A stretch of DNA of 64,000 bases from a virus: UHGV virus genome UHGV-0277313, one strand, 5' to 3'. Position numbers and translations under genes: made by a program. The notes under the pieces are model-generated. The model had not been told where the DNA came from. It worked only from the letters and a program-made list of their open reading frames with translations, and did no database searches. The stretch's first letter is position 1. Each line of letters begins with the position of its first letter. Positions 2,367-50,365 of the stretch are shown piece by piece.

Positions 2367-3326
2367 ATGAGTAATGTTGATCTAATTGAATGGTGGTTGC
2401 ATCAATTTAAATTTACCGAACAAGATATGAACTTGTTGCAATCGTATGAAACTGATTTTATTATTACAAATAAAGATTACGATATTGTAAGAGAAAAAGC
2501 TTTGTCGATGTTGCCTGTACATTCAATTGATTATCATATTCATTTTGATACTTGTGCAACAAACATAATTGATAATTTATTTTTCAAGTATGTCGATGAT
2601 GACACATTAGTCATTACAACAATGAGCGAACATCCTTCTGTAAAAAAGAATTTAGAGAAGTGCAAGAATGTAATATACATGTGTTGTAACGGAAAAGTGA
2701 TTGAAGATTTTTATAAGCAATCGGACAAAATAGCTAATTTTAAAAAGGTATTTGTTTATAATATAGCTTTATCTGTTGGTGATGGGCATATAACATATAA
2801 TGACAATTTATTGGAGCTGAAAAGGAATCTAGATTCATTAGGTATCAAATCAGTTTTTGTATTAGATGCTGTACAAGAATTGTTTATGTTGCCGCGTGAT
2901 TATTCAATCTATGATTATATTATTGGTACTGCACATGCATTCGTCACGAAATACGATACTGGAGTACTTTTAAGTAAAGAGTATATACCGTCAGCTAAAT
3001 CGTGTTTATCACAAGGTGATCAGTATTTAGATTTATTGTCAATGTTGATAAAACATAAAGAACAATTATATCAATTTAAATATGTAATGGTGCAAGTATT
3101 TGGAAAATATTTATCGACAGATAGCGCTTTAAGTGTAACAGAAAACGGGCCGTATGTATTCAACTTGATTGATAAAAAGAATCGATTGGTTGGAATTACT
3201 GAAGCAGATCCAATTGCACAACCTGAAAATACTAATGCAACATTAAGAGCTTGCGAATCTTTATTGGACCAAAATACGTTTATAAATAAAGTGGAAACGA
3301 TTAAATATCTGTTGTCGGAGAACTAA
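2367..3326 (+). CDS. IscS/NifS-like class-V PLP-fold protein lacking the PLP lysine (paralog 1 of 3)
   Basis: FDTCATN, ITTMSEHPSV (compare IscS ITSxxEHxAV) and LDAVQE...IIGTAHAF (IscS DATQ...SGHK, with K replaced by A). Paralogous to 23936..24874 and 24874..25833. Confidence 0.5.
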   Translation: MSNVDLIEWWLHQFKFTEQDMNLLQSYETDFIITNKDYDIVREKALSMLPVHSIDYHIHFDTCATNIIDNLFFKYVDDDTLVITTMSEHPSVKKNLEKCKNVIYMCCNGKVIEDFYKQSDKIANFKKVFVYNIALSVGDGHITYNDNLLELKRNLDSLGIKSVFVLDAVQELFMLPRDYSIYDYIIGTAHAFVTKYDTGVLLSKEYIPSAKSCLSQGDQYLDLLSMLIKHKEQLYQFKYVMVQVFGKYLSTDSALSVTENGPYVFNLIDKKNRLVGITEADPIAQPENTNATLRACESLLDQNTFINKVETIKYLLSEN

Positions 3327-3328
3327 AC

Positions 3329-4186
3329 ATGAATGAAAAGAAAGAATTAATAAATATTTTTGATTATGATTTGTTTGATTGGGCAGATATGAAAACACAT
3401 TCAATCTCAACTAGTAAATCAACACAAGAAGAAGATAAAAAGTCGTTTATTAAAGCATATAAATTAAATGAAGTAGAAGTAGCTATTGAGCCGCAAAGCT
3501 ATCCTGAATTTCTAAAAACAGGGTCAGTAGGAATTGTTTATAGTGGCGGTTATGATTCAACTGTCTTAATGCTTCAAGCGTTAATGAACGGGGAAACAGT
3601 TAAACCGATTATATTTAATTTTGCACAGGATGATATAATTAAAGCAGTAAACTTGTCTATTTTAAAAAATAGATTTGGTGAGAATTTATTGGAACCTATT
3701 TGGTTCAATTTTTTCGGTTTGCAAGGCGGAATGTGCGGAACACAATGTACACAACAGTTGGCAATTCACAATATGTTGACATATTTGTCTAATGATGTTT
3801 TGAAAAGTTTGAAAGAGATTCAGGTAGGATACGTAATGAACGATGACGCTGTTTCTTTTCAAGAGGAATTGAAAGATGTTGTATCAATTGGATTTAAGAT
3901 TCAAGATAAAGTCAATGTTCCTATTACATATCCTTTAATACAAAAACATAAATATTATATAGATGATTTTATTCAACAACATTTAGGGTTCAATCATTTA
4001 TGTTTGTCTTGCCAGTTGCCAAGTTTTAATTATTATAAAGATTCTGATGCTTTATATATTATCACGGCAACTTGTAATGGCTGTACATCTTGTATGCATT
4101 CACAGTTATATAATTTGAATTTTTATCGTGGTAATTGTGTTGTTTTAGCAACAAGAATCCCATTTGCTAAACGATCTTGTTTTTGA
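3329..4186 (+). CDS. PP-loop ATP pyrophosphatase (QueC/ExsB-like) with Cys-rich C-terminus
   Basis: SGGYDS PP-loop motif. C-terminal CLSC...TCNGCTSC cysteine cluster. Confidence 0.55.
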   Translation: MNEKKELINIFDYDLFDWADMKTHSISTSKSTQEEDKKSFIKAYKLNEVEVAIEPQSYPEFLKTGSVGIVYSGGYDSTVLMLQALMNGETVKPIIFNFAQDDIIKAVNLSILKNRFGENLLEPIWFNFFGLQGGMCGTQCTQQLAIHNMLTYLSNDVLKSLKEIQVGYVMNDDAVSFQEELKDVVSIGFKIQDKVNVPITYPLIQKHKYYIDDFIQQHLGFNHLCLSCQLPSFNYYKDSDALYIITATCNGCTSCMHSQLYNLNFYRGNCVVLATRIPFAKRSCF

Positions 4187-6663: not shown

Positions 6664-6945
6664 ATGAAATTGTGCAAAGATAAATTCAAAGAAAAGGTTG
6701 GTTATTTTTATCTTGATGCTATTGATTGGGTTTGTAATGACACAGATCTTAACAATTTCATTTTACCTGAAAAGACAGAATTTATGTCAATTAAAGAAAT
6801 GATTCGATATGCTATTGATAATGTCCCTGCATCTGCAACAGAATCATTTGCACAATTTCATTACATTAAAAATGATGTGATAAAAGAAGAAACAGCGTTG
6901 CTGTTTAAATATTACAACGGTTCGCTTAAAACATTTCAAATCTAA
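6664..6945 (+). CDS. Hypothetical protein
   Basis: Shine-Dalgarno AGGAGGG precedes ATG 6664. Confidence 0.5.
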   Translation: MKLCKDKFKEKVGYFYLDAIDWVCNDTDLNNFILPEKTEFMSIKEMIRYAIDNVPASATESFAQFHYIKNDVIKEETALLFKYYNGSLKTFQI

Positions 6946-6947
6946 AT

Positions 6948-7691: not shown

Positions 7692-7751
7692 TAATTACTA
7701 TTTATCGTAAGAACAAAGATTTATGTGATAAACAAATAACACTAAACAAAA

Positions 7752-7775
7752 ATGCCGGGCTAAAGTGCTCGGCAT
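7752..7775. terminator. Rho-independent terminator hairpin, bidirectional (A-run / T-run flanks)
   Basis: ATGCCGGGC-taaagt-GCTCGGCAT stem-loop flanked by AAAAA and TTTTT. Confidence 0.6.
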
Positions 7776-7800
7776 TTTTGTTTATTTATCTAATTCAATC

Positions 7801-8160
7801 TCAAAATTCAAAGACATAAGGTAATTCATCTTCACGAATTTCGAAAATCTTATCATGTGTCTTTACGAATCCATGTTCAACCAGATATTCAACAAAACCA
7901 TAAAAAGGTGATTTTGCATCTTTCAACAAAGCGTCTTTATACATTTTTCTTAAGTTGAAATCTTTAATAACAAGAAAAGTTGTATGTTTTGCATCAGCAT
8001 CATTGTCGGCAAATTCATTTAATTCAATTAATTCGCCAGCATGACAATCGAAGCCTTCAGGCTCATATGTATCCCAATCACGTTCGATTTGATCTTCGTT
8101 AAGATATGAACGAACAAATTTACGATAGGATTCTTCGATTTTATTTTTAGAATCAGTCAT
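7801..8160 (-). CDS. Hypothetical protein
   Basis: 119-aa ORF followed by a terminator hairpin. Confidence 0.5.
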   Translation of the reverse strand: MTDSKNKIEESYRKFVRSYLNEDQIERDWDTYEPEGFDCHAGELIELNEFADNDADAKHTTFLVIKDFNLRKMYKDALLKDAKSPFYGFVEYLVEHGFVKTHDKIFEIREDELPYVFEF

Positions 8161-8346
8161 TATTAAAACCTTTAGTTAAGTTGCAACTGAATAAAGAACA
8201 AACTTAAAGACAATCAGCTTGACTTTTGTTTTTTAATTTGATATTTTAAAAACTTCACACAAACCAATGAAAATTGAAGAAAATTTCTTGCAAAATTTCA
8301 TCGTTTGAGTTAATATAGAATAAATTGAGAAAAGAAGAAACGGAAA

Positions 8347-9540
8347 ATGATTCGCAGTTCAGCATTGACGTTAAAATTTGCAACAAGCAAAAAGCTGAAC
8401 ACCTTGGATTTGGTGTTTGACGAGTATGTCCGTGTTGTGAATTTGTATATTGATGCCTTGAGCCAATCAAAAGAACTGCCTAAATTCATCAATTTCAAAG
8501 TGGATACTTGGATTTCTGTTCAGCTCCAGCAAGTAGCTGGCAAACAAGCAGTGGAAATAATAAAATCTACCAGAAAGAAAGATCGAGAGATTAGATTGAA
8601 GAAATACAAGAAAACCTACAAGTATTTCTTAAATAAACAACGACAAAAGAAATTCATTAGCACGAAATTCAGCGAATTGAGATTGAATTACAAAATAAAA
8701 CCAAGGTATGATGGGAAAGTAATTCCGTTTGATCAACGCCAGTTTTCTTTATGTAAGTCAAATAATTCGTTTGACTTCTGGGTTCATTTGCGTTGCCTTG
8801 GTAATAAATTTATTTTGGATTTGCCTTTGAAAAATCACAAGCACAATAAACAGTTTATAGATTGGAAACGAGTGGGTTCTTGTAGGTTGCTTAGAAACAA
8901 TGGGAAATACAAAATTGAGTTGATTTATGAAAAAGAAGCTCCTAAATTAGCTAAACCAACAAAAATACTTGCAATAGATGCAGGAATTAATTGCTTGATG
9001 TCTTGCTCAGATGGACGACAGCTTGGTTTAGAACTGAAGAAATTACTCAATGAATTGAATCAGAAACAACAGAAATCTAAATCATACACTCGTAAATTGA
9101 ACCAAATACATAACTATGTCCGTTGGTGCGTGAACCAGCTAAATTGGGGTAATTTATCTGATTTGGTGATTGAAAATCTGAAATACATTCAGATTGATAC
9201 GAAGAAGCGAGTTAATAAAGTAACTTGTAAGTTGCTTTCCAAATGGAATTTGGGTTTATGGCGTAAAGCCATAGAACAAAAATGTGAAGAAAACTGTGTT
9301 TATTTGCATTATGTTAATCCCAAAGACACAAGCAGAACTTGTCCTAAATGCGGAAGCATTGACAAGGAAAACAGAAACGGTGAATTATTTCATTGCATAA
9401 ATTGTGGCTATGAAGCAAATGCTGACCTCAATGCAGCAATGAATATACTCACCCGGTTTTATCAGGAGAAACCTTTGCAGGTTGATATAGTCCTTGATTC
9501 TGCGAAAACTAATTTTAGTGATTTCATTAATTTTCATTAA
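8347..9540 (+). CDS. tnpB: TnpB-like RuvC nuclease (IS605 OrfB / IS607-type)
   Basis: RuvC-I motif ILAIDAGINCLMSC and RuvC-II motif LVIENLKYI. Zinc finger CPKCGS...HCINCGY and RuvC-III motif NADLNAAMNIL. Confidence 0.8.
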   Translation: MIRSSALTLKFATSKKLNTLDLVFDEYVRVVNLYIDALSQSKELPKFINFKVDTWISVQLQQVAGKQAVEIIKSTRKKDREIRLKKYKKTYKYFLNKQRQKKFISTKFSELRLNYKIKPRYDGKVIPFDQRQFSLCKSNNSFDFWVHLRCLGNKFILDLPLKNHKHNKQFIDWKRVGSCRLLRNNGKYKIELIYEKEAPKLAKPTKILAIDAGINCLMSCSDGRQLGLELKKLLNELNQKQQKSKSYTRKLNQIHNYVRWCVNQLNWGNLSDLVIENLKYIQIDTKKRVNKVTCKLLSKWNLGLWRKAIEQKCEENCVYLHYVNPKDTSRTCPKCGSIDKENRNGELFHCINCGYEANADLNAAMNILTRFYQEKPLQVDIVLDSAKTNFSDFINFH

Positions 9541-12736: not shown

Positions 12737-12928
12737 ATGATTGTAAATTTAATAGAAAGTCAAATAGTCAACAGAATAGATTGTGAACATTTAAAACGTG
12801 TCGAAGATTTAGATAAGTTGGAATGTTTTAACGATTTAATAATGACAGATCTGAAAGAATGCGAAAAAGAACATCTGAAAATTTACAATAAACAAATCGA
12901 AAAAGCGGGAACTTTTAATGGCCAATAA
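12737..12928 (+). CDS. Small hypothetical protein
   Basis: 63-aa ORF between family members. Confidence 0.35.
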   Translation: MIVNLIESQIVNRIDCEHLKRVEDLDKLECFNDLIMTDLKECEKEHLKIYNKQIEKAGTFNGQ

Positions 12929-13253
12929 AAATAAAAAGCTTGAGAGAATATATCAATTATTAAATGAAAAGAATTCAACGTTTTGTTTATATGATCGAGA
13001 AGTATATTTAAAAACATGTCATATATTTCAATTCGATGAATACAATAATGAATACACTGTTGCTGGAGAAATTCATTTAGATAAAGAGCGAACAGAGCAG
13101 CCTTTAGGGTATATAGTTGTAAGAGTCAGTAAAGAAGCTTTAAAATCTTTTCCGTATGTGTTTGAAAAAGGAGATTTAAAGTTAACCGAAAAAGGGTTGT
13201 CTGTCTTCGTGGAAAGAAAAGAGGTTGGAAAAGTTGTTTTAGATAATGTTTAA
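12918..13253 (+). CDS. C-terminal-tail family protein (ends ...KEVGKVVLDNV)
   Basis: Shared C-terminal motif. Confidence 0.55.
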   Translation: MANKNKKLERIYQLLNEKNSTFCLYDREVYLKTCHIFQFDEYNNEYTVAGEIHLDKERTEQPLGYIVVRVSKEALKSFPYVFEKGDLKLTEKGLSVFVERKEVGKVVLDNV

Positions 13254-13257
13254 TTAG

Positions 13258-13286
13258 TTGACATATAGCTTTTTATATGATATATT
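13258..13286 (+). promoter_or_regulatory. Sigma70-like promoter TTGACA-N17-TATATT
   Basis: TTGACA at 13258-13263 and TATATT at 13281-13286. Confidence 0.5.
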
Positions 13287-13756
13287 ACAAAATATAAATT
13301 CTCATCCAAATGTTATTTTTAAAATATATCTTGATTTCTAAATTGATATGAGGTAATCTAAAAGAATAGAAGTTTATCTATAAAGTTTTAAAATTAAGTT
13401 GGAAGGTTTGTGATTTTGTTATACAAGGTGACTAAATCAATGGAAGAAAGAGGATACTTTGTTTAGGTTACAAATTCAACTTGATTTTAAATACAAAAGA
13501 AAATCTGAGTGAAATAAAGGTTTTCTCCTTAGAAATAAGGTTGTTTTTAGATTCATGTCATCTAAATCTATATAAATTTTATAATAGTTTAGAGTGGTGA
13601 GTTATTTTAAGAGAGGTATTTTTGTTTTGCTAAGTTTAGGTGTTGTCTTTACTGTTGTTGCAGTATTAGGTTTCGTTTGGGCAATCAAATTGTCTAAAGT
13701 TGTAGAAAAGGCTGATAAAGCCGATCATGAAAATAAAAACTAATTGAGGTGTGGAA

Positions 13757-14905
13757 ATGTCTTTTAAAAGCTTGACAATCGTTACGATCGTAGTGTGTTT
13801 AGTGCTTTTTGTTTGTTTAGCAGGAGGTCTGTTTGAAACAAACAGTTTTGGAAATTATCAGATTAAACAGGCGGCTGTTACTGGCCATGTAACCGTTCGG
13901 ACGGCGCCAGGTCTTTATTGGCAAGGATTTGGGCAAATCACTACATACCCTGTTTCTGAAGACCTTGATTTTGAAGATTCAAATATGACTGTACGTTTCA
14001 ATGATGGATCTGTTGCTAGTGTGAAAGGTACAGTCAAATACAAATTGCCAATGTTAGAAAAATTGCAGATGGAATTGCATCGTGACTATGGCTCGTTTAA
14101 AAATGTTGAAGAAGATTTGATTCGCAAAAATGTTGCTGAAGCATTGTCACAGGCCGCTACGTTGATGGTTGCTGAAGATTCATATTCTGCAAGACGTGCT
14201 GAATTTTCAGATGCGGCGAAGAAACAGTTGGAAAACGGCATTTTCAAAACGTCTACAAAAGTTGTTGATTCGACTGATGAAAATGGAACAAAATTCAAAC
14301 AGCGCATCATTAACATTGTTTATGATAATGAAGGGAACCCTATCGTTCAGAAGAAGTCGTTGTTGAAGCACTACGGAATTGAAATTCTTCAGTTTGTTGT
14401 AAATGATTTTGGCTACGATTCTAAAATTAACGATTTGATTTCGAAAAAGAAAGAAGCTGAACAGTTAAAAGTTGTTAGTACGGCAAACGCTGAACGTGCT
14501 AAACAGGATGCTTTAACAGCTGAAGCGCAAGGGAAGGCCAGAATTGCAGAAGCCCGTGCAAATGCTGAAGTACAGAAAACTACAGAAGTCGTAGAAGCAC
14601 AGAAACGTGCTGAAGTAGCTAAACTTGCGGCTGAACAGGCTAAATACGAAGCCTTGAAGGTCAAGCAGGAAGGTGAGGCTGAAGCATATGCAAATAAACT
14701 GAAAGTGCAAGCGGGTTTGACACCTTTAGAAAAAGCAACAATCGAAAAAGAAACCCGCATTGGAATTGCAAAAGCATTGGCTAGCGTTAAATTTCCTGAA
14801 CACATGATCATTTCAGGTGGTAGTTCAGGTACAAGTTCAACAAATCCTTTTGACGCAGTAGGACTTAAAGCACTCTACGAATTGTCAAATAGTTTGAATA
14901 AATAA
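13757..14905 (+). CDS. SPFH / band-7 (HflK/C-flotillin-like) membrane protein
   Basis: N-terminal transmembrane helix, then an SPFH-like region. Long Ala/Glu/Lys/Gln coiled-coil (AEAQGKARIAEARANAEVQK...). Shine-Dalgarno GAGGTG precedes ATG 13757. Confidence 0.65.
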   Translation: MSFKSLTIVTIVVCLVLFVCLAGGLFETNSFGNYQIKQAAVTGHVTVRTAPGLYWQGFGQITTYPVSEDLDFEDSNMTVRFNDGSVASVKGTVKYKLPMLEKLQMELHRDYGSFKNVEEDLIRKNVAEALSQAATLMVAEDSYSARRAEFSDAAKKQLENGIFKTSTKVVDSTDENGTKFKQRIINIVYDNEGNPIVQKKSLLKHYGIEILQFVVNDFGYDSKINDLISKKKEAEQLKVVSTANAERAKQDALTAEAQGKARIAEARANAEVQKTTEVVEAQKRAEVAKLAAEQAKYEALKVKQEGEAEAYANKLKVQAGLTPLEKATIEKETRIGIAKALASVKFPEHMIISGGSSGTSSTNPFDAVGLKALYELSNSLNK

Positions 14906-14911
14906 ACTCAA

Positions 14912-34462: not shown

Positions 34463-34480
34463 AAATTGAAATTTAAAATG

Positions 34481-34500
34481 TATCGTACGAATCGAAGGTC
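34481..34500 (+). promoter_or_regulatory. Palindrome-box motif TATCGTACGAATCGAAGGTC ~35 nt upstream of ATG 34535
   Basis: TCGTACGA plus GAAGGTC. Confidence 0.45.
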
Positions 34501-34534
34501 TTTAAATAAAAGGATTGTTAAATTAGGAAAAGCA

Positions 34535-35731
34535 ATGTCTAACTATCAATTAACTCAATCGGTCGTTCAAGGTTTACTAAAAGACAAAAACACAATAATT
34601 GATAAATTTAATTCGAATAAAATTGTTTCAATTCAGCAAGATATTAAGTTAGAATTAAATGACGGTACTCTGATTTTAAAAGCTGGAAGTAAAGTATATA
34701 TACCTAATGGTAAGAATAGTGATGATAGCAATAAATTTGATGCAGTTACTATTGAGAATGATGTAACTTATTCTGCCGTATATACATCGGCCGTTAAATG
34801 TTATGCTGTATACGATTATTCAGCAAAAAGATTGCAAATAATTTCTTTAACTGATAATAGATTATCTTATGATTCTACAACAAATAAAGTAATTCATACA
34901 GAAATAACTGATAATGTTTTATCTTTTCCATTTGCTTTAGTAGTAAGAGATACAACTGGTATAGGTAGTGTTAACCAAATCTTCAATGGTTTTGGATACA
35001 TTGGCTCGACTTGTTATATTTTACCAGGTATTACCGGATATATTCCACAAGGATTAAATTCAGACGGAACTTTAATTAATGAAATAATCACACAAACAAA
35101 AGTGTCTTGTACAACAGTTACTTCATCATGGGGAACTGGTTCAGAATTATTCTTCTTTAATGGCATCGATAGCTATATTCATAGAGCTTCAAAAAATTGT
35201 TTTTATCAAGCAACACAACCTATAGTGAACGATGTTGACAATTATTGGTATAACACTGAAACTGGGAAATTTTATGAAACAAAAAATTCTGGATCATCTT
35301 GGTCTGAATTTAAAGCTATTCCTGCATTTACGATTACTTTTGATGAAGGGAAGATTACATCTTTAAAATCTTGTGGTGTACATGAATTAGTCAATTCAAA
35401 TGCAACGAATTTATCTGACTATGGAAGACAAGTTATTTCAGGTTTAGGAAAGCCTTCTAGCAAATATATTGATCTGACTGTCGGGGCTTCTGGAACGACT
35501 TATATCGCTCCAATGAATGGCTATCTTTATTGTAGTGGTCATGCCGATGCTTCACCTGCATATATATCAATTGATATTCCAAACTTACAATATTGTGGAA
35601 TAAATGGTGATGAAGGACAGGATTTAACAACAAATCAAATAGCATTAAAAATTGGTGATAAATTTACTCTACGCTATAGTAACACAACAATTAATGCTTT
35701 TAGGTTTGTTTATGATGAAGGGTGCTCTTAA
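34535..35731 (+). CDS. Tail-fibre-like protein (paralog of 38503..39789)
   Basis: DIKLELNDGTLILKAGSK, IFNGFGYIGST, YIDLTVGASGTTYIAPMNGY and RFVYDEG motifs. Shine-Dalgarno AGGAAAAG precedes ATG 34535; the track ORF from 34466 runs through the motif box. Confidence 0.55.
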   Translation: MSNYQLTQSVVQGLLKDKNTIIDKFNSNKIVSIQQDIKLELNDGTLILKAGSKVYIPNGKNSDDSNKFDAVTIENDVTYSAVYTSAVKCYAVYDYSAKRLQIISLTDNRLSYDSTTNKVIHTEITDNVLSFPFALVVRDTTGIGSVNQIFNGFGYIGSTCYILPGITGYIPQGLNSDGTLINEIITQTKVSCTTVTSSWGTGSELFFFNGIDSYIHRASKNCFYQATQPIVNDVDNYWYNTETGKFYETKNSGSSWSEFKAIPAFTITFDEGKITSLKSCGVHELVNSNATNLSDYGRQVISGLGKPSSKYIDLTVGASGTTYIAPMNGYLYCSGHADASPAYISIDIPNLQYCGINGDEGQDLTTNQIALKIGDKFTLRYSNTTINAFRFVYDEGCS

Positions 35732-35825
35732 ATAGTCTGTCAGGTTGTACAACATTTGATTTAACCAGAACAGAGTTTCACCTTAGGCAATGCAAGATAT
35801 GAAACCGTTAATTGTTTTCAAATTT

Positions 35826-35904
35826 AGAAACCTTATAAAATTTTATGATTTTATTTATGTTGAATCATAGAAAATTAAAAATCAAGACTTGTTTTAAAAA
35901 TAAT
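35826..35904 (+). repeat. Solitary copy (~75% identity) of the ~80-nt 5' leader found upstream of the TnpB-like gene 36479..37792
   Basis: AAACCTTAtaAAATTTTATgaTTTtATTTATGTT...TCAAGACTTgTTTTAAAAATAATa matches 37796..37875. Confidence 0.5.
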
Positions 35905-36001
35905 AAGATCCAAAGTTAACTTTTGAAAAAGAGAATGTTTGTTTTTGAACCATCTCAATTTTTCTATTGATTTTCTTATTCATATCTTATAATATAATTA
36001 T

Positions 36002-36415
36002 ATGAAAGGAATAAAGAAGATGCAAAGAATTCAAAAATTGAAATACACCTTGAAACATAAAATTGCTTTTCTTAAAGTTGAAAAGCAAATCACTGGTCAC
36101 ATTTCATTTAAGGGAATTGTTCATGATTTGGATAAAGTCTTTATGTTCCTTTTTTGTCCTTGGTTGACAACGAAAGAAATTCAAAAGATTCATCGTCAAA
36201 ATCAAAAACATCACATTGAAAATGTTTCACAAAAAACAGAAAAGGATTATCTGGAAGCAATCATTGATTGGGAATGTGCAAGATATACAAAGCCGGATAA
36301 ACCTTTAAATGCTTATGAAACACTTATGAAGTTTTATCCGAATTACAAAGAAGTTTATTTACCTCTTATTTTGCAATATCTTCCGCAGGAAGTTATCGAT
36401 TACAAATCAAAATAA
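36002..36415 (+). CDS. Hypothetical protein (passenger ORF next to the TnpB-like gene)
   Basis: Shine-Dalgarno GAAAGGAA precedes ATG 36002. 137 aa. Confidence 0.5.
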   Translation: MKGIKKMQRIQKLKYTLKHKIAFLKVEKQITGHISFKGIVHDLDKVFMFLFCPWLTTKEIQKIHRQNQKHHIENVSQKTEKDYLEAIIDWECARYTKPDKPLNAYETLMKFYPNYKEVYLPLILQYLPQEVIDYKSK

Positions 36416-36478
36416 ATTGTAGTGTTTGAGAAAAAGATCAGTTTGAAATTTGCTTCTCACTGATCTCTTTAAAATAGC

Positions 36479-37792
36479 TCAACATTCTAAACTATTATAA
36501 ATTTTATATAAATTTACAAAAGATTTAGATGACTTGAGTCTAAAAACTTCAGATTTAAACAAACCCAAAGAACGTCTGTATTTCACTCCAGATGTTTTTG
36601 CTATATCAAAGAGTTCTTTCCAAGAACTATAAACCCAGCTTGCTGATTCCTTCCATAGGTTGAACAAACTTTCAGCTTTTATAAGTTCTGGATAAAACCG
36701 ACCTTTGATATAACGGAAATTCGCACGACGTGCAATTTCCAAACTTGCTGCTATCGGGTCTGGTGCTTCGTTAAGCACATTCCCAATGAATGAAGAATAA
36801 ACTGGATTGACTTCTATGAAGTCTATTTTGTTAAGCAAGCATAGTTTCTTTAAAGCAGAAACCAAGCTATCTCTTTTCCATTTATTCTTCGTTAATCTAT
36901 TGAATGATTTACCTTTTCCTGAATTACCAATTTTGAAATTCAAATCTTCAATGCCAAATTTACCAACATGGAAAAATTTGCATTTTTTGATTATATCTTT
37001 CGCAATCTCTTTAAGCTCAAAGATTTGCTTGTTGTTTTGGTGCTTAGAGTCTTTATGAGAAGAAGATTTATGAAAATTTTTGGTAAAATAGGAAAGGTCA
37101 TACTGCTCTTTAAGTAATATCTTCCTCTTATCACCAGTCCATTTAGAAATAGAAAATCCAATATAATTTGGATTCATATCAATTGCGCCAATAACATTTA
37201 ATTTTCCATTATAATTGGAACAATAGATTTTGAAATCATCGAAAGCAATACAGATTTTATCTAATTTTAATTCAACACTAAAATTAGATAACTTCTGCTT
37301 GACTTGCTCTTCTAAGCTGATTAGTTCATATAAGTAATTCTTATGAAAGATAGGTAACTTCAAATAGATATGTTTAGTTTTAGAAAACTTAAAGATAATC
37401 TGGTTATTTGAGATATCCAACTTGAATTTACGATTTCCACCTTTTGGCGTTTCACCTTGAGAATAAATCCCTAAAAATCTATTTTCTTTGAAAATATTTT
37501 TATTTAACTTATGTTTTAATCTCTGAAAGAAATTAAATTTACCTCCAAATATAACATTTTCTTTATTTGCTGCAAGCAAATAACTTGCTTTCTTAATAGC
37601 ACACTGAATAAACCACGAATCCGAAGGAACATTTGATAAGCTTTTAGAAAGCAATCTAATGTCTTTTTCAGATTTTTCATCTTGAAAACGGTTATATGCA
37701 AATCTTACCATATTAGACGACTTACGAATTTCATCTCTGATGAAGATTCGATCATCGTCTGAACAAGTATAAGGTAAGCTAATTGTTTTCAA
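36479..37792 (-). CDS. TnpB/Fanzor-like RuvC-fold nuclease lacking the zinc finger (paralog a)
   Basis: RuvC-I VIGAIDMNPNYIGF and RuvC-II FGIEDLNFK. EVNPVYSSFIGN sits in the position of the TnpB VDPxYTSQxC motif but has no CxxC. RuvC-III-like APDPIAASLEIARRA. TTG start. ~85% aa identity to 46869..48176. Confidence 0.6.
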   Translation of the reverse strand: MKTISLPYTCSDDDRIFIRDEIRKSSNMVRFAYNRFQDEKSEKDIRLLSKSLSNVPSDSWFIQCAIKKASYLLAANKENVIFGGKFNFFQRLKHKLNKNIFKENRFLGIYSQGETPKGGNRKFKLDISNNQIIFKFSKTKHIYLKLPIFHKNYLYELISLEEQVKQKLSNFSVELKLDKICIAFDDFKIYCSNYNGKLNVIGAIDMNPNYIGFSISKWTGDKRKILLKEQYDLSYFTKNFHKSSSHKDSKHQNNKQIFELKEIAKDIIKKCKFFHVGKFGIEDLNFKIGNSGKGKSFNRLTKNKWKRDSLVSALKKLCLLNKIDFIEVNPVYSSFIGNVLNEAPDPIAASLEIARRANFRYIKGRFYPELIKAESLFNLWKESASWVYSSWKELFDIAKTSGVKYRRSLGLFKSEVFRLKSSKSFVNLYKIYNSLEC

Positions 37793-37795
37793 TTT

Positions 37796-37875
37796 ATAAA
37801 CCTTAGGAAATTTTATAGTTTAATTTATGTTAAATTAGATTTAGTTAGATGTCAAGACTTATTTTAAAAATAATC
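37796..37875 (-). repeat. Conserved 5' leader of the TnpB-like gene (ends in the TATTTTTAAAATAAGTCTTGA motif)
   Basis: Matches the leader of 46869..48176 (46788..46868) and the solitary copy at 35826..35904. Confidence 0.5.
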
Positions 37876-37964
37876 TCTTTGATTTTAACTAAGTCTTCTT
37901 GAATTGACATTTTAAGATTTCCAACTTCATATTAAAAAGATGGATAGAATTAAGTATAAAAACA

Positions 37965-38005
37965 AAGGAGAGGCTTAGGATTTTTATTTCCTAAGCCTCT
38001 TCCTT
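37965..38005 (-). terminator. Strong hairpin terminator downstream of the small ORF 38021..38176
   Basis: GGAGAGGCTTAGGA-ttttta-TCCTAAGCCTCTTCC, a 14-bp stem followed by a T-run on the minus strand. Confidence 0.6.
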
Positions 38006-38020
38006 CATTTTGAAGATTTT

Positions 38021-38176
38021 TTAATAATCTTCGTACCAATCACCTTGGCCATTTACCCGACGATGATAATCTTCGTTGCTTTCGTGGGATTTCCGTGTTG
38101 TGCCTTGTTCCCGTTCCAGCCGTTTGAATCTTTCGTAAGAGCTTTCTTCTTTATCTTCATCATAGGTGTAACTCAT
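38021..38176 (-). CDS. Small highly charged protein (51 aa; MSYTYDEDKEESSYERFKRLEREQG...DWYEDY)
   Basis: Perfect AAGGAG Shine-Dalgarno 8 nt before the ATG. Hairpin terminator downstream. Absent from the track, which lists only ORFs of 60 aa or more. Confidence 0.5.
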   Translation of the reverse strand: MSYTYDEDKEESSYERFKRLEREQGTTRKSHESNEDYHRRVNGQGDWYEDY

Positions 38177-38430
38177 TTTCTTTTCTCCTTTTCCTTTCTC
38201 CAGGGGAAATCAATTTCCCTTTACATATATAACATAACCTTTTTTGGAGAAGAAATCAAGAACTTTTTTATATTTTTATTATAATTTTTCTTGATTTCTC
38301 TGCAAATCTTCAATTAAACACAGAGAGCTAAATGAAAGCTAACGTTTTAAGTTGAATCGAAATAGTCATTTCGAATTTCATAACAAATGAAGATTAAATT
38401 AAAAACTTATGCTCTTAAATAATCTGCTAA

Positions 38431-38450
38431 ATCGTACGACAGATTTAATA
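38431..38450 (+). promoter_or_regulatory. Palindrome-box motif (AATCGTACGAC..., weak second half) upstream of 38503
   Basis: TCGTACGAC core ~62 nt upstream of the ATG. Confidence 0.35.
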
Positions 38451-41397: not shown

Positions 41398-41419
41398 ACA
41401 CCAATAAATAAAAAGACTC

Positions 41420-41448
41420 TTGACAAATTTCAAAACATATGTTATTCG
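41420..41448 (+). promoter_or_regulatory. Promoter-like element TTGACA-N17 (weak -10), copy 1 of a duplicated ~40-nt element
   Basis: AAAGACTCTTGACAAATTTCAAAACATATGTTA matches 41676..41712. Confidence 0.4.
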
Positions 41449-41495
41449 TAACATAAATATTGATTTTTAATTTTCTATAATGTTGAGGTACAAAA

Positions 41496-41642
41496 ATGAG
41501 TCACTACTATTCTGAAGAAATCTATGATTTGGAAATGGAAATCATAAAGCTGAAGCGTGAAAATGATGAACTTCGTAAACAGCTGAAGGAAAAAGAATCG
41601 CGAATCATAGAACTGGAACAAGTTAAGAGTGAAGCTAAATGA
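41496..41642 (+). CDS. Small coiled-coil protein (48 aa)
   Basis: Shine-Dalgarno GAGGT precedes the ATG. Heptad-like EIIKLKRENDELRKQLKEKE. Lies between the two promoter-like repeats. Confidence 0.4.
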   Translation: MSHYYSEEIYDLEMEIIKLKRENDELRKQLKEKESRIIELEQVKSEAK

Positions 41643-41682
41643 ATGCAAGATAATTATTTGTTCACATTATTCTTTAAAAGAC

Positions 41683-41711
41683 TTGACAAATTCTAAAACA
41701 TATGTTAAGTT
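41683..41711 (+). promoter_or_regulatory. Promoter-like element TTGACA-N17-TAAGTT, copy 2
   Basis: AAAGACTTGACAAATTCTAAAACATATGTTAAGTT. Shine-Dalgarno AAAGGAAAAGGTG follows before 41749. Confidence 0.45.
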
Positions 41712-44679: not shown

Positions 44680-45089
44680 TGAAGAAACATCTATTAGATA
44701 AAAGAAATTTATCATATTTGATCAACGACTGGGATGATTTAAATCTTCCGTTTACTATAAACGATAATGATATTGCATCTCAAGTCGTTGATTTCTTTTG
44801 TAAACAATCTGAATTAGTATATCCGGCAAAATCATATTTTGTTGCTATCGTTTATGCAAAATGTCTTGAAAACTTCTTTCATGAAGATTTTTATGAATGT
44901 TTGTCTGATAAAGATCTATTACCTGATGATAAGTTTTTCAAAACATATATTGACTCTCAAGAAATTTATGATAAGATATTAACACAAATTAAAGACCCGT
45001 TAACATATAAATCTGTCGAAAAGACTGTAAGTTATTTTAAAAAGGAATTTCTTATTGGAACTAATAATCAAACCAACAGGCCGTTGTAA
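44679..45089 (+). CDS. Hypothetical protein
   Basis: ATGA overlap with the upstream stop. Confidence 0.45.
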   Translation: MKKHLLDKRNLSYLINDWDDLNLPFTINDNDIASQVVDFFCKQSELVYPAKSYFVAIVYAKCLENFFHEDFYECLSDKDLLPDDKFFKTYIDSQEIYDKILTQIKDPLTYKSVEKTVSYFKKEFLIGTNNQTNRPL

Positions 45090-46014
45090 CTTTAATTGCA
45101 AATTCTGTAGCGCTAATTTATTAAGCATTAAGCATCAAACAAAAGTACCAAATGAATTAATCAAAATAATTCAAACTATAAAGCCAAACAGTCTTATTTT
45201 TACAGGTGGGGATCCTTTATTAGTTGGCCCTGGATATTATTATGAAATTTTATCTTTAGGTAATTTTTCTATTTCATTAACAACAAACCTAAAAGATTAT
45301 TACATTCAATCAAAAAAATGGATTGATTTATTCAAAAATAAGCGTGTCGGAATTTGCACATCTTTTCAATACGGAAATGAACGCATGTGGAATTCTGAAC
45401 AGGTTTATAGTGAAGATGTATTTAAAAAAGTTATGAAAAGATTTAAAGAAGATGTTGGTTATACACCTTCGTTTATTTCAGTCATTTCTAAATCAAATGA
45501 GGATAAAGCATTAGATCATTTATATCTTGCAAAGGAGTTGAAAACTAAATGCAAGATTAACGGCGTCTTGCCGATCGGATTGTCAAAAGAATATTACCCT
45601 TTATATAAAATGATCGATATTTGGTTGCAAATAAAAGAAAATAATCTTGAAAAATATTGGGACAACAAAATTCAATTTCACAATGGCGGTTGCAATTTTA
45701 ATACAAACTTAATATGCTCAAGCACCATTCGCTCTTTCTGGCTTGATAACAACAATAACATACATTATAATAATTGCGAAGATTGTGCTGTACGTGGCTC
45801 TCGTATTCCTTTAGATACCAACATAGTTATCCCTAAAGAAGAAAATCTGAAGCCAGAACAATTGATTTCTCAAGACTGTTTATGTTGTGAACTATGCAGG
45901 CTATGCAATGCTTGTAAATCAACAAGACAATCAATTCTTGATAAACAGACTTTTTGTTCTGAAATGAAAAAACGGAAACAGAAGATATTGGATGCTAAAT
46001 GGAAAATCTATTAA
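45055..46014 (+). CDS. Radical SAM/SPASM-like enzyme (array B, 1)
   Basis: IKPTGRCNFNCKFC and FTGGDPLL motifs. C-terminal CLCCELCRLCNACKS. Confidence 0.65.
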   Translation: MELIIKPTGRCNFNCKFCSANLLSIKHQTKVPNELIKIIQTIKPNSLIFTGGDPLLVGPGYYYEILSLGNFSISLTTNLKDYYIQSKKWIDLFKNKRVGICTSFQYGNERMWNSEQVYSEDVFKKVMKRFKEDVGYTPSFISVISKSNEDKALDHLYLAKELKTKCKINGVLPIGLSKEYYPLYKMIDIWLQIKENNLEKYWDNKIQFHNGGCNFNTNLICSSTIRSFWLDNNNNIHYNNCEDCAVRGSRIPLDTNIVIPKEENLKPEQLISQDCLCCELCRLCNACKSTRQSILDKQTFCSEMKKRKQKILDAKWKIY

Positions 46015-46802
46015 CTGCACTGTATGTAATTCCGAATTATCAATGCAATCTGGCATGTCCACATTGTACATTGCACAATTATAATATAGAGTACGATGAA
46101 GAAACATTTATAGATACATTGGTTAAAACGAACGCCAAAAAATGCATTCTATTTGGTGGTGAGCCATTGTTGTATTTTGAAAGATTTAAACGTATTTTGG
46201 AAACTAAAAAGATTCACTCAATATCAACAAATCTTTTATTACTATCAAGAGAATCACTCAATTTAATTAAACATTACAATATTAGTATTGCAACTTCTTG
46301 GAATTTAAAAAGATTCACAAACGATCAATTAAATAAATGGTTTGACAATATTAAAAATGTACAATGTGATGTTTTAATAACAATGACAGACGATTTGATA
46401 ACTAAAAGCGGTACAGAAAAAATGTTTGAAATTTTAGAACATTTAGAAAATTTTGGTACTGTAAAAAATATTATTTTCGAACAAGTTGTCGATGATAGAA
46501 TGGATGAACAACATTATGAACAAGTTGACAACTGGTTGTGCAATATACATGATAATTGGCATTTTAAAATGAATAATGCTATCGAAGATAAACTAGATAA
46601 ATGCATTCTGGATTGTTCAAAAGTTAAAACACTTGAACCTAACGGTATCTTGCATAATGGTTGCCCACAATTTAAAACAGTTCATATTGTTAACAAATGT
46701 TTAAGTTGTGAATTAAATAAAATTTGTAAACCATGTATTTTACAAAAACATTGCACGTTTCCTACAAAACTTTACAACAAATTAAAGGTTATTTTAAAAT
46801 AA
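45999..46802 (+). CDS. Radical SAM/SPASM-like enzyme (array B, 2)
   Basis: CNLACPHC and LFGGEPLLY motifs. C-terminal CLSCELNKICKPCILQKHC. Confidence 0.65.
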   Translation: MENLLTALYVIPNYQCNLACPHCTLHNYNIEYDEETFIDTLVKTNAKKCILFGGEPLLYFERFKRILETKKIHSISTNLLLLSRESLNLIKHYNISIATSWNLKRFTNDQLNKWFDNIKNVQCDVLITMTDDLITKSGTEKMFEILEHLENFGTVKNIIFEQVVDDRMDEQHYEQVDNWLCNIHDNWHFKMNNAIEDKLDKCILDCSKVKTLEPNGILHNGCPQFKTVHIVNKCLSCELNKICKPCILQKHCTFPTKLYNKLKVILK

Positions 46803-46868
46803 GCCTTGATTTTTAAATTTTTATAATTTATAATAAATAAAAATAAAGAATTTTATAAGGTTTATAAA
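46788..46868 (+). repeat. Conserved 5' leader of the TnpB-like gene (begins TTATTTTAAAATAAGCCTTGA)
   Basis: Same length and ~70% identity to the revcomp of 37796..37875. Overlaps the 3' end of the rSAM gene. Confidence 0.45.
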
Positions 46869-48176
46869 TTGAAAACAATTAGTTTGCCATATACTTGTTC
46901 AGAAGACGACCGAAACTTCATCAAAGATGAAATTCGGAAATCGTCTAATATGGTAAGATTTGCTTTCAACAGATTCAAAGATTCTAAGTCTGAAAAAGAC
47001 ATTAGATTGCTTTCTAAAAGCTTATCAAATGTTCCTTCGGATTCTTGGTTTATTCAATGTGCAATCAAGAAAGCAAATTATCTGTTATTAACCAATAAAG
47101 AAAAAGTTATTTTCGGAGGAAAATTTTATTTTTATCAAAGATTAAAACATAAATTAGATAAAGACAGGTTTAAATCAAGTAGATTGCTTGGGATTTATTC
47201 TCAAGGTGAAACACCGAAAGGTGGAAATAGAAAATTCAAACTAGATATAGCGAACAATCTAATCATTTTCAAATTCTCAAGATATAAATACATCAATCTC
47301 CAGTTACCTAAACTTCGTAAGAATTATCTTTATGAACTAATCAACTTAGAAGAGCAATGTAATCAGAAGTTATCTAATTTTAGTGTTGAATTAAAATTAG
47401 ATAAAATCTGCATAACGTTTGATGATTCCAAAATCTATACAAGTAATTATAATGGAAAATCAAATATAGTCGGTGCTATTGATATGAATCCTAATTATAT
47501 TGGATTTTCTATTTCTAAATTTTCAAATGGAAAAAGGAAGATTTTGCTCGAAGAGCAATATGATTTGTCTTACTTTACAAGAAATCTTCATAAAGCAACA
47601 GATGATGCTAAAGGTAAGCACCAAAACAGCAAACAGATATTTGAGCTTAAAGAGATTGTGAAAGATATAATCAAGAAATGCAAATTTTTCCACGTTGGAA
47701 AATTTGGCATTGAAGATTTGAATTTCAAACAAACAAATTCAGGAAAAGGTAAATCATTCAATAGATTAACGAAGAATAAATGGAAAAGAGAGGCACTGGT
47801 TTCTGCATTGAAGAAACAATGCTTACTTAACAAAATAGACTTCATAGAAGTTAATCCAGCTTATTCTTCATTTATTGGGAACCTATGTAATAATGCACCA
47901 GACCCAATAGCAGCAAGTTTGGAAATTGCTCGTAGGGCAATGTTCAAGTATATCAAAGGTCAGCTCTATCCAGAACTTATAAAAGTTGAAAGCTTGTTCA
48001 ACCTATGGAAGGAATCAGCAAGCTGGGTTTATTCGAGCTGGAAAGAACTGTTTGATATAGTAAAAACATCTAAAGTGAAATATAGACGTTCTTTGGAATC
48101 TTTTGATTCTGAAGTTTTTAGACTCAAGTCATCTAAATCTATGGTAAATTTATATAAAATTTATAATTGTTTATAA
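46869..48176 (+). CDS. TnpB/Fanzor-like RuvC-fold nuclease lacking the zinc finger (paralog b)
   Basis: Same motifs as 36479..37792 (IVGAIDMNPNYIGF, FGIEDLNFK, EVNPAYSSFIGN, APDPIAASLEIARRA). TTG start. Inserted between rSAM genes. Confidence 0.6.
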   Translation: MKTISLPYTCSEDDRNFIKDEIRKSSNMVRFAFNRFKDSKSEKDIRLLSKSLSNVPSDSWFIQCAIKKANYLLLTNKEKVIFGGKFYFYQRLKHKLDKDRFKSSRLLGIYSQGETPKGGNRKFKLDIANNLIIFKFSRYKYINLQLPKLRKNYLYELINLEEQCNQKLSNFSVELKLDKICITFDDSKIYTSNYNGKSNIVGAIDMNPNYIGFSISKFSNGKRKILLEEQYDLSYFTRNLHKATDDAKGKHQNSKQIFELKEIVKDIIKKCKFFHVGKFGIEDLNFKQTNSGKGKSFNRLTKNKWKREALVSALKKQCLLNKIDFIEVNPAYSSFIGNLCNNAPDPIAASLEIARRAMFKYIKGQLYPELIKVESLFNLWKESASWVYSSWKELFDIVKTSKVKYRRSLESFDSEVFRLKSSKSMVNLYKIYNCL

Positions 48177-48195
48177 TAGTGAGTTATTTTAATAA

Positions 48196-49302
48196 ATGAA
48201 TCCTTTAGAGTTTTATAAAAATAGTGATTACTATGAAATTGCTTGCATGTTATTTGAACCTTGCAATTTAAAATGTAAATTTTGTTTTGAAGATCATAAA
48301 AACAAAACAATCGACACAGATTACATTGAGAATATTTATAAAATAATTGATGAAAAGTTTTCGATTGATTATGAAAAATACAAACATTCTTTAAAGACAC
48401 TTTATATAATGATGTGGGGTGGCGAGATTTTTTATGACGCACTACCTGATGAAGTTTTTAAATCATATTACAAATTTGTCGATAATATAAAAGATTTGTT
48501 TGATAAAAAATTTCCAAATGTTAAAGTTATCTTTTCATGGTTATCAAACGGTGTATTTACAAACTATAAACGTGTCGAAGATATTGTCAAATATTCAAAA
48601 GGAATTATTAACTTTAGTTATGATCCTGTTAACAGATTCTCAACACATAAACAAAAAGATTTAATGGTAAAGACCGCAACCTATTTTAAAAAAATTGGTT
48701 TAGCTGATAAAATATCAATTACATTAACAAAAGACTCTATTAAAGGTTTTATTGAAAATGATGATTCATTAAAATACTTTAACAATATTGGATTCTTAAT
48801 TGATGTAAATTACTATATCGCAAATGTCAACTGGCAATCACTATTAGCGACAGACAATGAAATATTTACATTTTTTAAATGGGCAATAGATAACAAATTG
48901 TATAGAATAAAAGTATTGGAAAAATGTTTTGATTCTATTACAGGAAAGCCTTCATCTTCATATTGTAACTGTTTATGGTGTTCACAAATTACACATGGTC
49001 AATGGAGTATTGATTGTGCTAAATGTAGTTCGGTATTGCCACCAGAATTGTTTTACGGTGAATATACGCCACAAATAACAGAAGAAAATTCAAATCAAAT
49101 TAAGGCATCTATTGGATTAGTTAAACGAGGTTGTTTAGCTTGTGAATATCACCACATTTGTCAACACCCTTGTTGGATTTCCATAGTGTTTAAAGGATTT
49201 AAACCTTCAGTTTGCTTTTATAAACAAACTTATGATTATATAAAATCAAATGATGTTATTATTAATGATTTTTTGAAATGGAAACACAATGAAACAAAAT
49301 AA
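48196..49302 (+). CDS. Radical SAM/SPASM-like enzyme (array B, 3)
   Basis: CNLKCKFC and MWGGEIFYD motifs. C-terminal CNCLWCSQ...CAKCSS...GCLACEYHHICQHPC. Confidence 0.65.
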   Translation: MNPLEFYKNSDYYEIACMLFEPCNLKCKFCFEDHKNKTIDTDYIENIYKIIDEKFSIDYEKYKHSLKTLYIMMWGGEIFYDALPDEVFKSYYKFVDNIKDLFDKKFPNVKVIFSWLSNGVFTNYKRVEDIVKYSKGIINFSYDPVNRFSTHKQKDLMVKTATYFKKIGLADKISITLTKDSIKGFIENDDSLKYFNNIGFLIDVNYYIANVNWQSLLATDNEIFTFFKWAIDNKLYRIKVLEKCFDSITGKPSSSYCNCLWCSQITHGQWSIDCAKCSSVLPPELFYGEYTPQITEENSNQIKASIGLVKRGCLACEYHHICQHPCWISIVFKGFKPSVCFYKQTYDYIKSNDVIINDFLKWKHNETK

Positions 49303-50365
49303 TTTAAACAGTTTCGGTTTTGATTGTCTACTATTTGAACGTTGCAATCTTCATTGCACTTTTTGTCTTGAAGAACATTCTGTAAATGATATTGACATTC
49401 AATGGATCAGACAACTTCCGTCATTGTTATTAGAAAGATTTGAAAAAGAATATGAAAAACATTCTGAAACAAATCTTATTACTTTTCGTATTTGGGGAGG
49501 CGAATTGTTTTTTGATGCCATACCAAACGAATTATTTGAAGAATATAAGATGTTTGTTGAACAAACAAAACGTTTATTTAATAAAACTTTTCCTGAAATT
49601 AAATTAGATTTTGCATGGGTTTCAAATGGTGTATTTAAAAATATCGAACGTGTTATTAATTTATTAAAAGAAACTAATAGTGGAATTAATTTGAGTTACG
49701 ATCCTATAGGAAGGTTTCATAAAAAAGAATTAGAAGATTTAATGATTGAAAACGCTTTACACTTTCATTCATTGGGATTGTTGAATGAAATTTCAATCAC
49801 ATTAACTAAACATTGTATCAATGCATACGTAAACGATAAATCTCGACTTTTGGATTTAAAGTTCGCTAAAAAGATTGATATTAATTACTATATACCAAAC
49901 ATTAACTGGAAAACTTTACTTCCTTCTGACGACGATCTTTTCAACTTTTTTAAATGGGCAATCAATAATAAACTGTTTCAAATTATTGATCTGAATAGCT
50001 TGTTGTTAACACTGACTGGAAAAATGTCTAAATGTGTTAAAGGTTGCAACTGCCATAAACATTTATCAGCGTGTAAAAATTGTATTACATATAACTGTGT
50101 TAAAAGCTCAACAATATTTCCAAATGCAGATTTTTATGGTGATACAGTTATTACTGAAGACAACGTATCTGAAATTAAAAAATATAAAGGCATGTGCAAG
50201 CGAGGTTGCTTCTATTGTAAATATATAGATAAATGCCCCGGATGTTGCTGGACATCTATTATCTATAAAAATGCTACACTAGACGATTGCCCGTTCAAAA
50301 AAATTATAGAATATGTCGAACAAAATTCAAATATAAAAAATGAATTCATGCAATGGAAACTTTAA
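49289..50365 (+). CDS. Radical SAM/SPASM-like enzyme (array B, 4)
   Basis: CNLHCTFC and IWGGELFFD motifs. C-terminal CNCHKHLSACKNC...GCFYCKYIDKCPGCC. Confidence 0.65.
   Translation: MKQNNLNSFGFDCLLFERCNLHCTFCLEEHSVNDIDIQWIRQLPSLLLERFEKEYEKHSETNLITFRIWGGELFFDAIPNELFEEYKMFVEQTKRLFNKTFPEIKLDFAWVSNGVFKNIERVINLLKETNSGINLSYDPIGRFHKKELEDLMIENALHFHSLGLLNEISITLTKHCINAYVNDKSRLLDLKFAKKIDINYYIPNINWKTLLPSDDDLFNFFKWAINNKLFQIIDLNSLLLTLTGKMSKCVKGCNCHKHLSACKNCITYNCVKSSTIFPNADFYGDTVITEDNVSEIKKYKGMCKRGCFYCKYIDKCPGCCWTSIIYKNATLDDCPFKKIIEYVEQNSNIKNEFMQWKL

Follow-up and report, generated by a model that had tools for sequence, protein, structure and literature searches.

The 64,000-nucleotide stretch of virus genome UHGV-0277313 analysed here (the window; 31% G+C) contains three copies of an ~80-bp leader, two of which run directly into a gene for a TnpB-like protein. 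This leader is the left terminus (left end, LE) of a mobile element and carries the start context of the element's gene. The element is probably an insertion sequence of ~1.40 kb belonging to the IS607 family that has no tnpA recombinase gene and encodes a TnpB-family RuvC nuclease alone. It is a discrete insertion, as a related phage has two empty sites and four copies have the same terminal bases: the two complete copies in the window (elements A and B), the relative's own copy (L004) and a copy on a contig from the same sample (L103).

The leader forms the left terminus of an insertion

The leader copies lie at 35826-35904, 37796-37875 and 46788-46868, where the initial annotation had reported them. 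In a BLAST comparison within the window, 35809-35904 aligns with 37780-37874 (81%, E 1e-20) and with 46881-46792 (84.6%, E 2e-23), and the leader of B matches the other two copies with 81.5 and 63.5 bits. Across 50 first-order-Markov simulations of a 64-kb window with the same dinucleotide statistics, the best chance match averaged 31.6 bits (s.d. 3.0) and reached 41.9 bits at most. The similarity therefore persists above every simulated AT-rich background, the comparison by which the initial annotation had proposed to judge it, and the repeat is real at all three places. A leader profile finds three strong sites in the 64 kb, which are these three copies; beyond them nhmmer gives a weak site, 13314-13372 (E 0.003), and a marginal site, 41443-41482 (E 0.12). 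Since the profile is restricted to element copies, the leader is not a generic AT-rich or promoter motif.

Element B is absent from phage IMGVR_UViG_3300013426_000013 (313,762 bp, ~90% identical to the window phage), in which the two radical SAM genes that flank B adjoin directly. Window positions 45000-46790 match 5002-6792 of the relative's stretch L002, and 48188-50000 match 6791-8603; the flanks are thus contiguous in the relative and copy B is an insertion of ~1.40 kb, the limits of which also follow from comparison with its homologues A and L004. The empty site reads AAAGGTTTAAGAAATG and the occupied site AAAGGT-TA-TTTTAAAATAAG ... GAGTTATTT-TA-ATAAATG. At the empty site the upstream gene ends ...AAG GTT TAA, and in the window ...AAG GTT ATT TTA AAA TAA, showing that B inserted in the stop codon of the upstream radical SAM gene and that the LE provided three extra codons and a new stop. 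This accounts for the overlap, already recorded in the initial annotation, of the third leader copy with the last four codons of the radical SAM open reading frame (ORF) 45999..46802. The leader is missing together with the gene at this empty site, as expected if, as had been surmised, it is part of the gene unit and an element terminus.

A BLAST search with unit B revealed a further, gene-less copy that keeps the outer part of the LE and the last part of the right end (RE). Besides the weak leader-profile match given above, it matches the RE profile (E 9e-10) and, at 13473-13607, the RNA covariance model described below (80.5 bits, E 1e-12). The relative lacks it: window positions 12927-13286 correspond to 2476-2835 of the relative's stretch L094 and 13625-14906 to 2869-4150. 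L094 therefore provides a second empty site, and the 296-bp element is a miniature non-autonomous derivative. Comparison with a phage lacking the unit, a check suggested at the outset, thus gave a clean empty site for copy B and another for the miniature. In total the window contains two complete copies, a stump truncated at its 3' side and a miniature (Table 1).

The homology that links A, B, L004 and L103 ends at identical bases. Elements A and B are 82.8% identical over 1404 bp of DNA and 83% identical in protein, and their DNA homology (36469-37869 and 46792-48192) comprises the leader, the gene and ~15 nt beyond the stop codon; copy A matches both end profiles and the covariance model (36472-36631, 170 bits). 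L103 (scaffold_19, 276,920 bp) is a third full copy, with its LE at 3839-3914, a TTG start at 3920 and an RE that ends at 5240, and here too the left end overlaps the stop of an upstream ORF (3073..3849).

The RE finishes ...GAGTTATTTTA, 15 nt past the stop codon; at 14 of 14 independent junctions it ends GAG(T/C)TATTTTA, or GGGTTATTTTA in a remnant in the relative's stretch L003, followed by a variable base. At all seven left junctions the LE starts R-T-TA-TTTTT, with the variants TTGTT (L004), TTTT (B) and TTTTTT (L103). The right junctions include eight stretches from a scan of a single metagenome for the RE, which are cut at the match so that their right junctions alone are usable; an exact-pattern LE scan of viral contigs gave two loci and no more. 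TTA is common to the LE and RE junctions, at each empty site the insertion is clean and the shared sequence does not exceed TTA, and a check for target-site duplications found nothing longer. The two ends form no terminal inverted repeats and have only short AT-rich words in common; GA(C/G)TTATTTTA is found at the tip of the RE and, in inverted form, 8-18 nt inside the LE. By analogy, a common TTA without a long duplication fits the 2-bp crossover logic of serine recombinases, with a different core: IS607 elements have neither terminal inverted repeats nor target duplications and exchange an identical 2-bp core, which is GG in characterised members (PMC6188088).

From its TTA junction, the ~80-bp LE continues through a 14-bp palindrome (TTATTTT/AAAATAA), sigma-70-like hexamers and AAGG to the TTG start codon. 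The hexamers read TTGATT-N17-TATAAT in leader B, and TTGAYW-N17-TAnnAT stands at a conserved position in all copies. We infer that the LE supplies recombinase binding sites together with a promoter and an AAGG ribosome-binding site for tnpB. Promoter and terminator scans showed no enrichment over shuffles in this AT-rich DNA, so it is the conserved position, and that alone, from which the promoter assignment is drawn.

Table 1. Coordinates of the element copies, their parts and the surrounding features in the window
Feature	Position	Strand	Description
Element B	46790..48191	+	Complete, probable tnpA-less IS607-like insertion sequence: LE, tnpB-like gene, RE; TA/TTA bracket both junctions
LE of B (leader)	46790..46868	+	Junction TTA, palindrome, promoter-like hexamers, AAGG, then TTG start
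tnpB-like gene B	46869..48176	+	435 aa, TTG start; predicted RuvC nuclease of TnpB/Cas12f fold, no zinc finger
3' RNA and RE of B	48065..48191	+	Candidate omega/reRNA scaffold; ends ...GAGTTATTTTA; stop codon 48174-48176
Element A	36470..37872	-	Second complete copy: RE 36470-36596, gene 36479..37792 (437 aa), LE 37793-37872
Stump	35809..35903	-	Solitary LE and first five codons; truncated third copy, no RE
ORF137	36002..36415	+	ORF of 137 aa; outside all elements, in the flanking DNA that separates the RE of A from the stump's outer edge
2.7-kb block	35741..38433		Stump, ORF137, element A, 51-aa ORF, terminator; absent from the relative
Miniature derivative	13314..13609	+	296 bp; ~60 nt of LE and ~135 nt of RE/RNA scaffold; no gene

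Element B has the same orientation as the two radical SAM genes between which it sits. At least five radical SAM genes follow one another in one orientation from 45055 past the end of ORF 49289..50365, the extent of the run being taken from contig stretch L001, which reaches past the part of the window that was read. The RE of B contains an outward-facing sigma-70-like match, TTTATA-N17-TATAAT, at 48149-48177, just upstream of the next radical SAM gene, whose native upstream context was displaced by the insertion.

A predicted nuclease, a candidate guide RNA and a probable partner recombinase

The 435-437-aa product of the element is predicted to be a zinc-finger-less RuvC nuclease of the TnpB/Cas12 fold. 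An AlphaFold model built from 71 homologues (pLDDT 93.3) has full-length Foldseek matches to Cas12f, Cas12k, ISFba1 TnpB (8iaz) and mimivirus Fanzor2 (9b0l), with E values of 2e-9 to 8e-5 and TM ~0.5, in keeping with the wedge, REC and RuvC architecture of the superfamily. D205 and D345 do not vary among the 71 homologues, at least 90% of which retain E282, and this D-E-D triad of the split RuvC domain is present in both window copies. The C4 zinc finger is absent from its place between RuvC-II and RuvC-III: VNPAYSS and the RuvC-III aspartate are only ~10 residues apart, none of them a cysteine (SSFIGNLCNNAPD). Profile libraries recognise the protein poorly: Pfam-A gave no match, the OrfB_IS605 and OrfB_Zn_ribbon models included, PHROGs nothing useful, and TIGR01766 (TnpB-related) scores of 30.1 and 21 bits against a cut-off of 32 (E 5e-7 for gene B). 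Searching PDB sequences with the family profile returned Cas12f at E 0.009, and the same search with the single sequence returned nothing. The precomputed label of the protein is PF27229 SSO2105_N, for which a literature search on PF27229 and SSO2105 found no paper. The family comprises 959 proteins at E up to 0.001, counted as 50%-identity cluster representatives, and many close homologues lie on contigs of 150-310 kb. Zinc-finger-less, virus-enriched TnpB branches are known (PMC10691335). Membership of one published clade without the zinc finger, RIIIr-4, was considered and is not claimed, as RIIIr-4 has a histidine at RuvC-III (PMC10691335) and the present family an aspartate.

The last ~125 nt of the element have an RNAalifold consensus of stacked helices that ends 4-6 nt before the right junction, including helix 1 (48065-48072 with 48083-48090) and an outer helix (48121-48127 with 48179-48185). 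A covariance model built from seven sequences matches the 3' end of nearly every gene of the family, the miniature copy and ISCaje4, an insertion sequence of Campylobacter phage CP220. In the model-fitted alignment, 91.9% of cells pair, as against 32-48% with slid partners, and 569 cells show double changes, as against 68-143. Because this alignment had been fitted to the model, helix 1 was scored again on a protein-guided codon alignment, where 89.7% of cells pair against 26-48%, with the pair types CG (24), AT (19) and GC (5). Within helix 1 there are more G-U pairs than A-C mismatches, a bias in favour of a sense-strand RNA. TnpB guide RNAs are made from the 3' end of the element and ~16 nt of the adjoining flank (PMC13565253), and the 3' RNA, with the position and orientation expected of such RNAs, is a candidate omega/reRNA guide scaffold.

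A likely partner for the nuclease gene is found in relatives of the element. In locus L005, which has a tnpB 81% identical to that of the window and the same RE, a 200-aa IS607-type serine recombinase (tnpA) overlaps the tnpB start; this protein has HTH_17/MerR at 6-37 and Resolvase at 57-190 (E 7.6e-19). By tblastn, a full-length tnpA homologue stands directly upstream of tnpB in 14 of 79 viral loci, and a partial one in a further locus. When 48 distinct upstream neighbours were scanned, Resolvase was present in 12 and no other family recurred among the matches listed; no Y1 transposase was among the 25 families listed of the 31 found. Locus L061 is a tnpA-deletion derivative of the L005 type that keeps the LE and the last ~25 nt of tnpA. 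The window-type LE aligns end to end with the LE of L005 (z 2.1-5.5 against shuffles), and in this alignment the tnpB start falls on the tnpA start, which suggests a clean loss of tnpA. Transposition of IS607 requires tnpA alone (PMC6188088), and the copies in the window are non-autonomous, given that it contains no tnpA.

A mechanism can be sketched from these parts. The copies would have been inserted by a serine recombinase, which we assume to be supplied in trans, through a 2-bp crossover at TA or TT within the common TTA, by analogy with the GG of IS607. The window-type LE would have arisen through the loss of tnpA, with the tnpB start moving to the former tnpA start. The 3' RNA may be transcribed into the flank and guide the nuclease to the empty site, where a cut could either restore the element or home it into a co-infecting relative.

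Several observations weigh against this reading. The homology of the window-type LE to the tnpA-bearing LE is modest, and neither the 64-kb window nor L103 contains a tnpA. The core is TTA-like and not the GG of characterised IS607 members, TA and TT cannot be told apart within it, and the crossover cannot be located exactly, the empty site of the relative departing from the one predicted from the window by one mismatch and an indel of 1 nt within a run of T. The promoter-like hexamers are no commoner in the leader than in shuffled AT-rich sequence. Most of the RNA helices were scored on the model-fitted alignment, and helix 2 fails on the independent codon alignment.

Homing, composite and regulatory alternatives

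An alternative that we consider unlikely is that the element spreads mainly or only as a free-standing homing nuclease gene, without any recombinase: guided by the element's RNA, the nuclease would cut the empty allele in a related phage that infects the same cell, and recombinational repair would copy the element in. The lack of tnpA in the window and L103, and in the majority of family loci, agrees with such a route, as do the intact catalytic triads of both window copies. In addition, the 20 nt that follow the RE of B (48192-48211), from which the guide of this copy would be formed, equal the relative's empty site (L002 6795-6814) at 19 of 20 positions and adjoin a T-rich motif, so that an RNA derived from B could in principle target the relative; homing into co-infecting phages is a recognised possibility for TnpB-like systems (PMC13565253). 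Against it, A, B, the miniature, L004, L103 and the eight metagenomic junctions occupy unrelated sites without common flanking homology, and transposition is therefore needed to reach new sites. Fixed ends with a common TTA are moreover the signature of site-specific strand exchange, and the miniature copy was inserted even though it has no gene. Homing is thus best seen as complementary to transposition rather than exclusive.

A more specific proposal, which we put forward tentatively, is that the tnpA-less copies function in jumbo phages as devices for RNA-guided homing or competition. The nuclease would be expressed from the LE promoter, the 3' RNA would extend into the flank, and the unoccupied allele of a co-infecting relative would be cut. 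The miniature, which keeps the LE with its putative promoter and the RNA scaffold, might then be a stand-alone guide-RNA gene that uses the nuclease in trans; if true, this would be a primitive, array-less step towards CRISPR-like targeting.

The initial annotation took the leaders at 35.8 and 37.8 kb as the bounds of a 2-kb composite unit with ORF137 as its passenger, and the two are indeed direct repeats 1.97 kb apart that enclose both ORFs. This reading is nevertheless contradicted by the evidence and very improbable. Paralogue homology, the 14 RE junctions and the empty site of B all give a unit of 1.40 kb; copy B inserted independently without ORF137 and ends 15 nt past its stop codon, and copy A is closed by a complete RE of its own at 36470, before ORF137 is reached. 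The order, in element orientation, is LE, gene and RE, then 564 bp of flank with ORF137 on the other strand, then an LE with 15 nt of gene. The solitary copy carries a gene stump, since the repeat extends ~17 nt beyond the limit first assigned to it, into the first five codons (TTG AAA ACA ATT ...), where it breaks off. BLAST and profile searches of the window found no gene body or RE after it, and the 68 nt beyond it (35741-35808), tested as a degenerate right end, gave no significant match. It is accordingly a decayed insertion, one of the two possibilities offered for it originally.

ORF137 itself lies outside both elements and is unlinked to the family elsewhere, occurring beside none of the 79 other family loci whose flanks were searched. 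Its only homologues found are in Lak megaphages (45% identity), in all of whose genomes searched it is present, and to which it is 68% identical over ~210 nt of DNA; in Pfam it has sub-threshold matches alone (DUF5662, Methyltransf_35). The relative lacks a larger block, the edges of which (35741 and 38433) differ from the leader positions: window 34970-35764 matches L003 9154-9945 and window 38410-38721 matches L003 9907-10219. A 17-bp direct repeat, TGCTCTTAAATA(G/A)TCTG, bounds this 2.7-kb block at 35724-35740 and 38417-38433 and repeats the final codons of ORF 34466..35731 with its stop. An insertion with target duplication could account for the block, as could a deletion between the repeats in the relative.

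It is just as improbable that the leader serves as a general phage promoter or regulatory cassette that recurs before several genes outside any mobile element. The conserved position of its sigma-70-like hexamers and the weakly similar 40-nt stretch at 41443-41482, which precedes a small ORF, would suit such a cassette. It is contradicted by the leader profile, which finds element copies only, by the joint absence of leader and gene at the empty site, and by the identical TTA junction at which the leader begins in seven independent insertions.

Least probable of all is that the leader, as a conserved non-coding sequence beside an RNA-guided-nuclease-like gene, encodes a 5' guide RNA as in IscB elements, or another structured RNA such as the omega-RNA-like region first suggested: none of its four copies folds better than shuffled sequence (z -1.67, +0.52, +0.75 and +0.11) and no structure is common to them, no Rfam family, RAGATH-18 included, matches the window at gathering score or 46700-48300 at E up to 10, and the covarying structure lies at the gene's 3' end, where TnpB guide RNAs are located.

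Some neighbouring features complete the description. A strong bidirectional terminator hairpin (37967-38002; 14 pairs, seven of them G-C) stands between the LE of A and the 51-aa ORF 38021..38176. Elsewhere in the window, at 41411-41710, a segment of ~265 bp with the small ORF 41497..41643 lies between two ~35-bp copies of a TTGACA promoter region, one at 41411-41445 and the other at 41675-41710, where the relative has one copy (L003 15244-15280) and no insert; the first 40 nt of this insert are the stretch weakly similar to the element LE (nhmmer E 0.12). In L103 (1438-5240) a 32%-identical paralogue lies 1.1 kb upstream of the element copy, and genes for an intein-containing helicase and a DnaB-like protein lie downstream. 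Copies of the family are also paired within 1-2 kb, in tandem or inverted, in two jumbo-phage contigs, L024 (806-2098 and 3001-4212) and L060 (3-1127 and 2995-4249), a pairing that echoes the arrangement of copy A and the stump.

Relation to known elements

The feature belongs to the known IS607/ISCaje4 kind of mobile element and is not a new system. In its relatives, as in IS607 of Helicobacter pylori, IS1535 and ISC1926, a serine recombinase whose HTH domain is N-terminal and whose catalytic domain is C-terminal is encoded directly upstream of tnpB and overlaps it. As in the IS607 family in general, long terminal inverted repeats and target duplications are lacking, the two junctions have an identical short sequence that may be the crossover core, movement does not require tnpB and many copies carry tnpB alone. 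It differs from that family in its core, which is TTA (TA or TT) and not GG; in a TnpB that lacks the C4 zinc finger and is not recognised by the Pfam OrfB models; in a 3' RNA that matches neither RAGATH-18 nor another Rfam family; in the absence of tnpA from the window copies; and in its replicon, a phage of ~300 kb.

ISCaje4 (NC_027997, 128167-129880) is likewise phage-borne. Its TnpB is 36% identical over 99% of the length, and the same 3' RNA model matches its end with 48.6 bits. It is distant in sequence, is annotated in its record as IS200/IS605 family, and retains upstream a resolvase-like tnpA remnant, an 80-aa fragment, whereas the window copies have none.

The TnpB proteins of ISDra2 and ISFba1, from the IS200/IS605 group, have the same fold and DED triad, together with a structured RNA that overlaps the 3' end of the gene, ends at the RE and would thereby take its guide from the flank. 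In the present family, by contrast, no Y1 (HUH) partner is among the upstream families listed, the zinc-finger domain is absent, and sequence similarity falls below curated thresholds. Fanzor2 and IS607-like elements of giant eukaryotic viruses also combine a TnpB-family nuclease with a serine recombinase in large viral genomes; Fanzor2 has a relocated RuvC-II glutamate and a zinc finger and belongs to elements of eukaryotic viruses, whereas the present protein has the canonical triad and a bacteriophage host genome. The seg and mob homing endonuclease genes of T4-like phages resemble the element in being small selfish nuclease genes that sit between conserved phage genes and are variably present among close relatives. 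They differ from it in recognising their targets through protein and in lacking defined transposon ends, whereas the element has fixed ends and, presumably, RNA-guided targeting.

A puzzling repeat is thus explained as ordinary transposon anatomy, with corrected unit boundaries, exact ends and two empty sites. What sets the element apart within its kind is the zinc-finger-less nuclease, the TTA rather than GG core, the distinct 3' RNA and the miniature derivative. It is part of a large phage-borne branch of compact TnpB nucleases (~435 aa, more than 950 cluster representatives) that is found in Lak megaphages and Campylobacter phages. With its T-rich insertion motif and a conserved 3' RNA of its own, this branch may be of interest both for the mining of small genome editors and for research on the selfish elements of jumbo phages.

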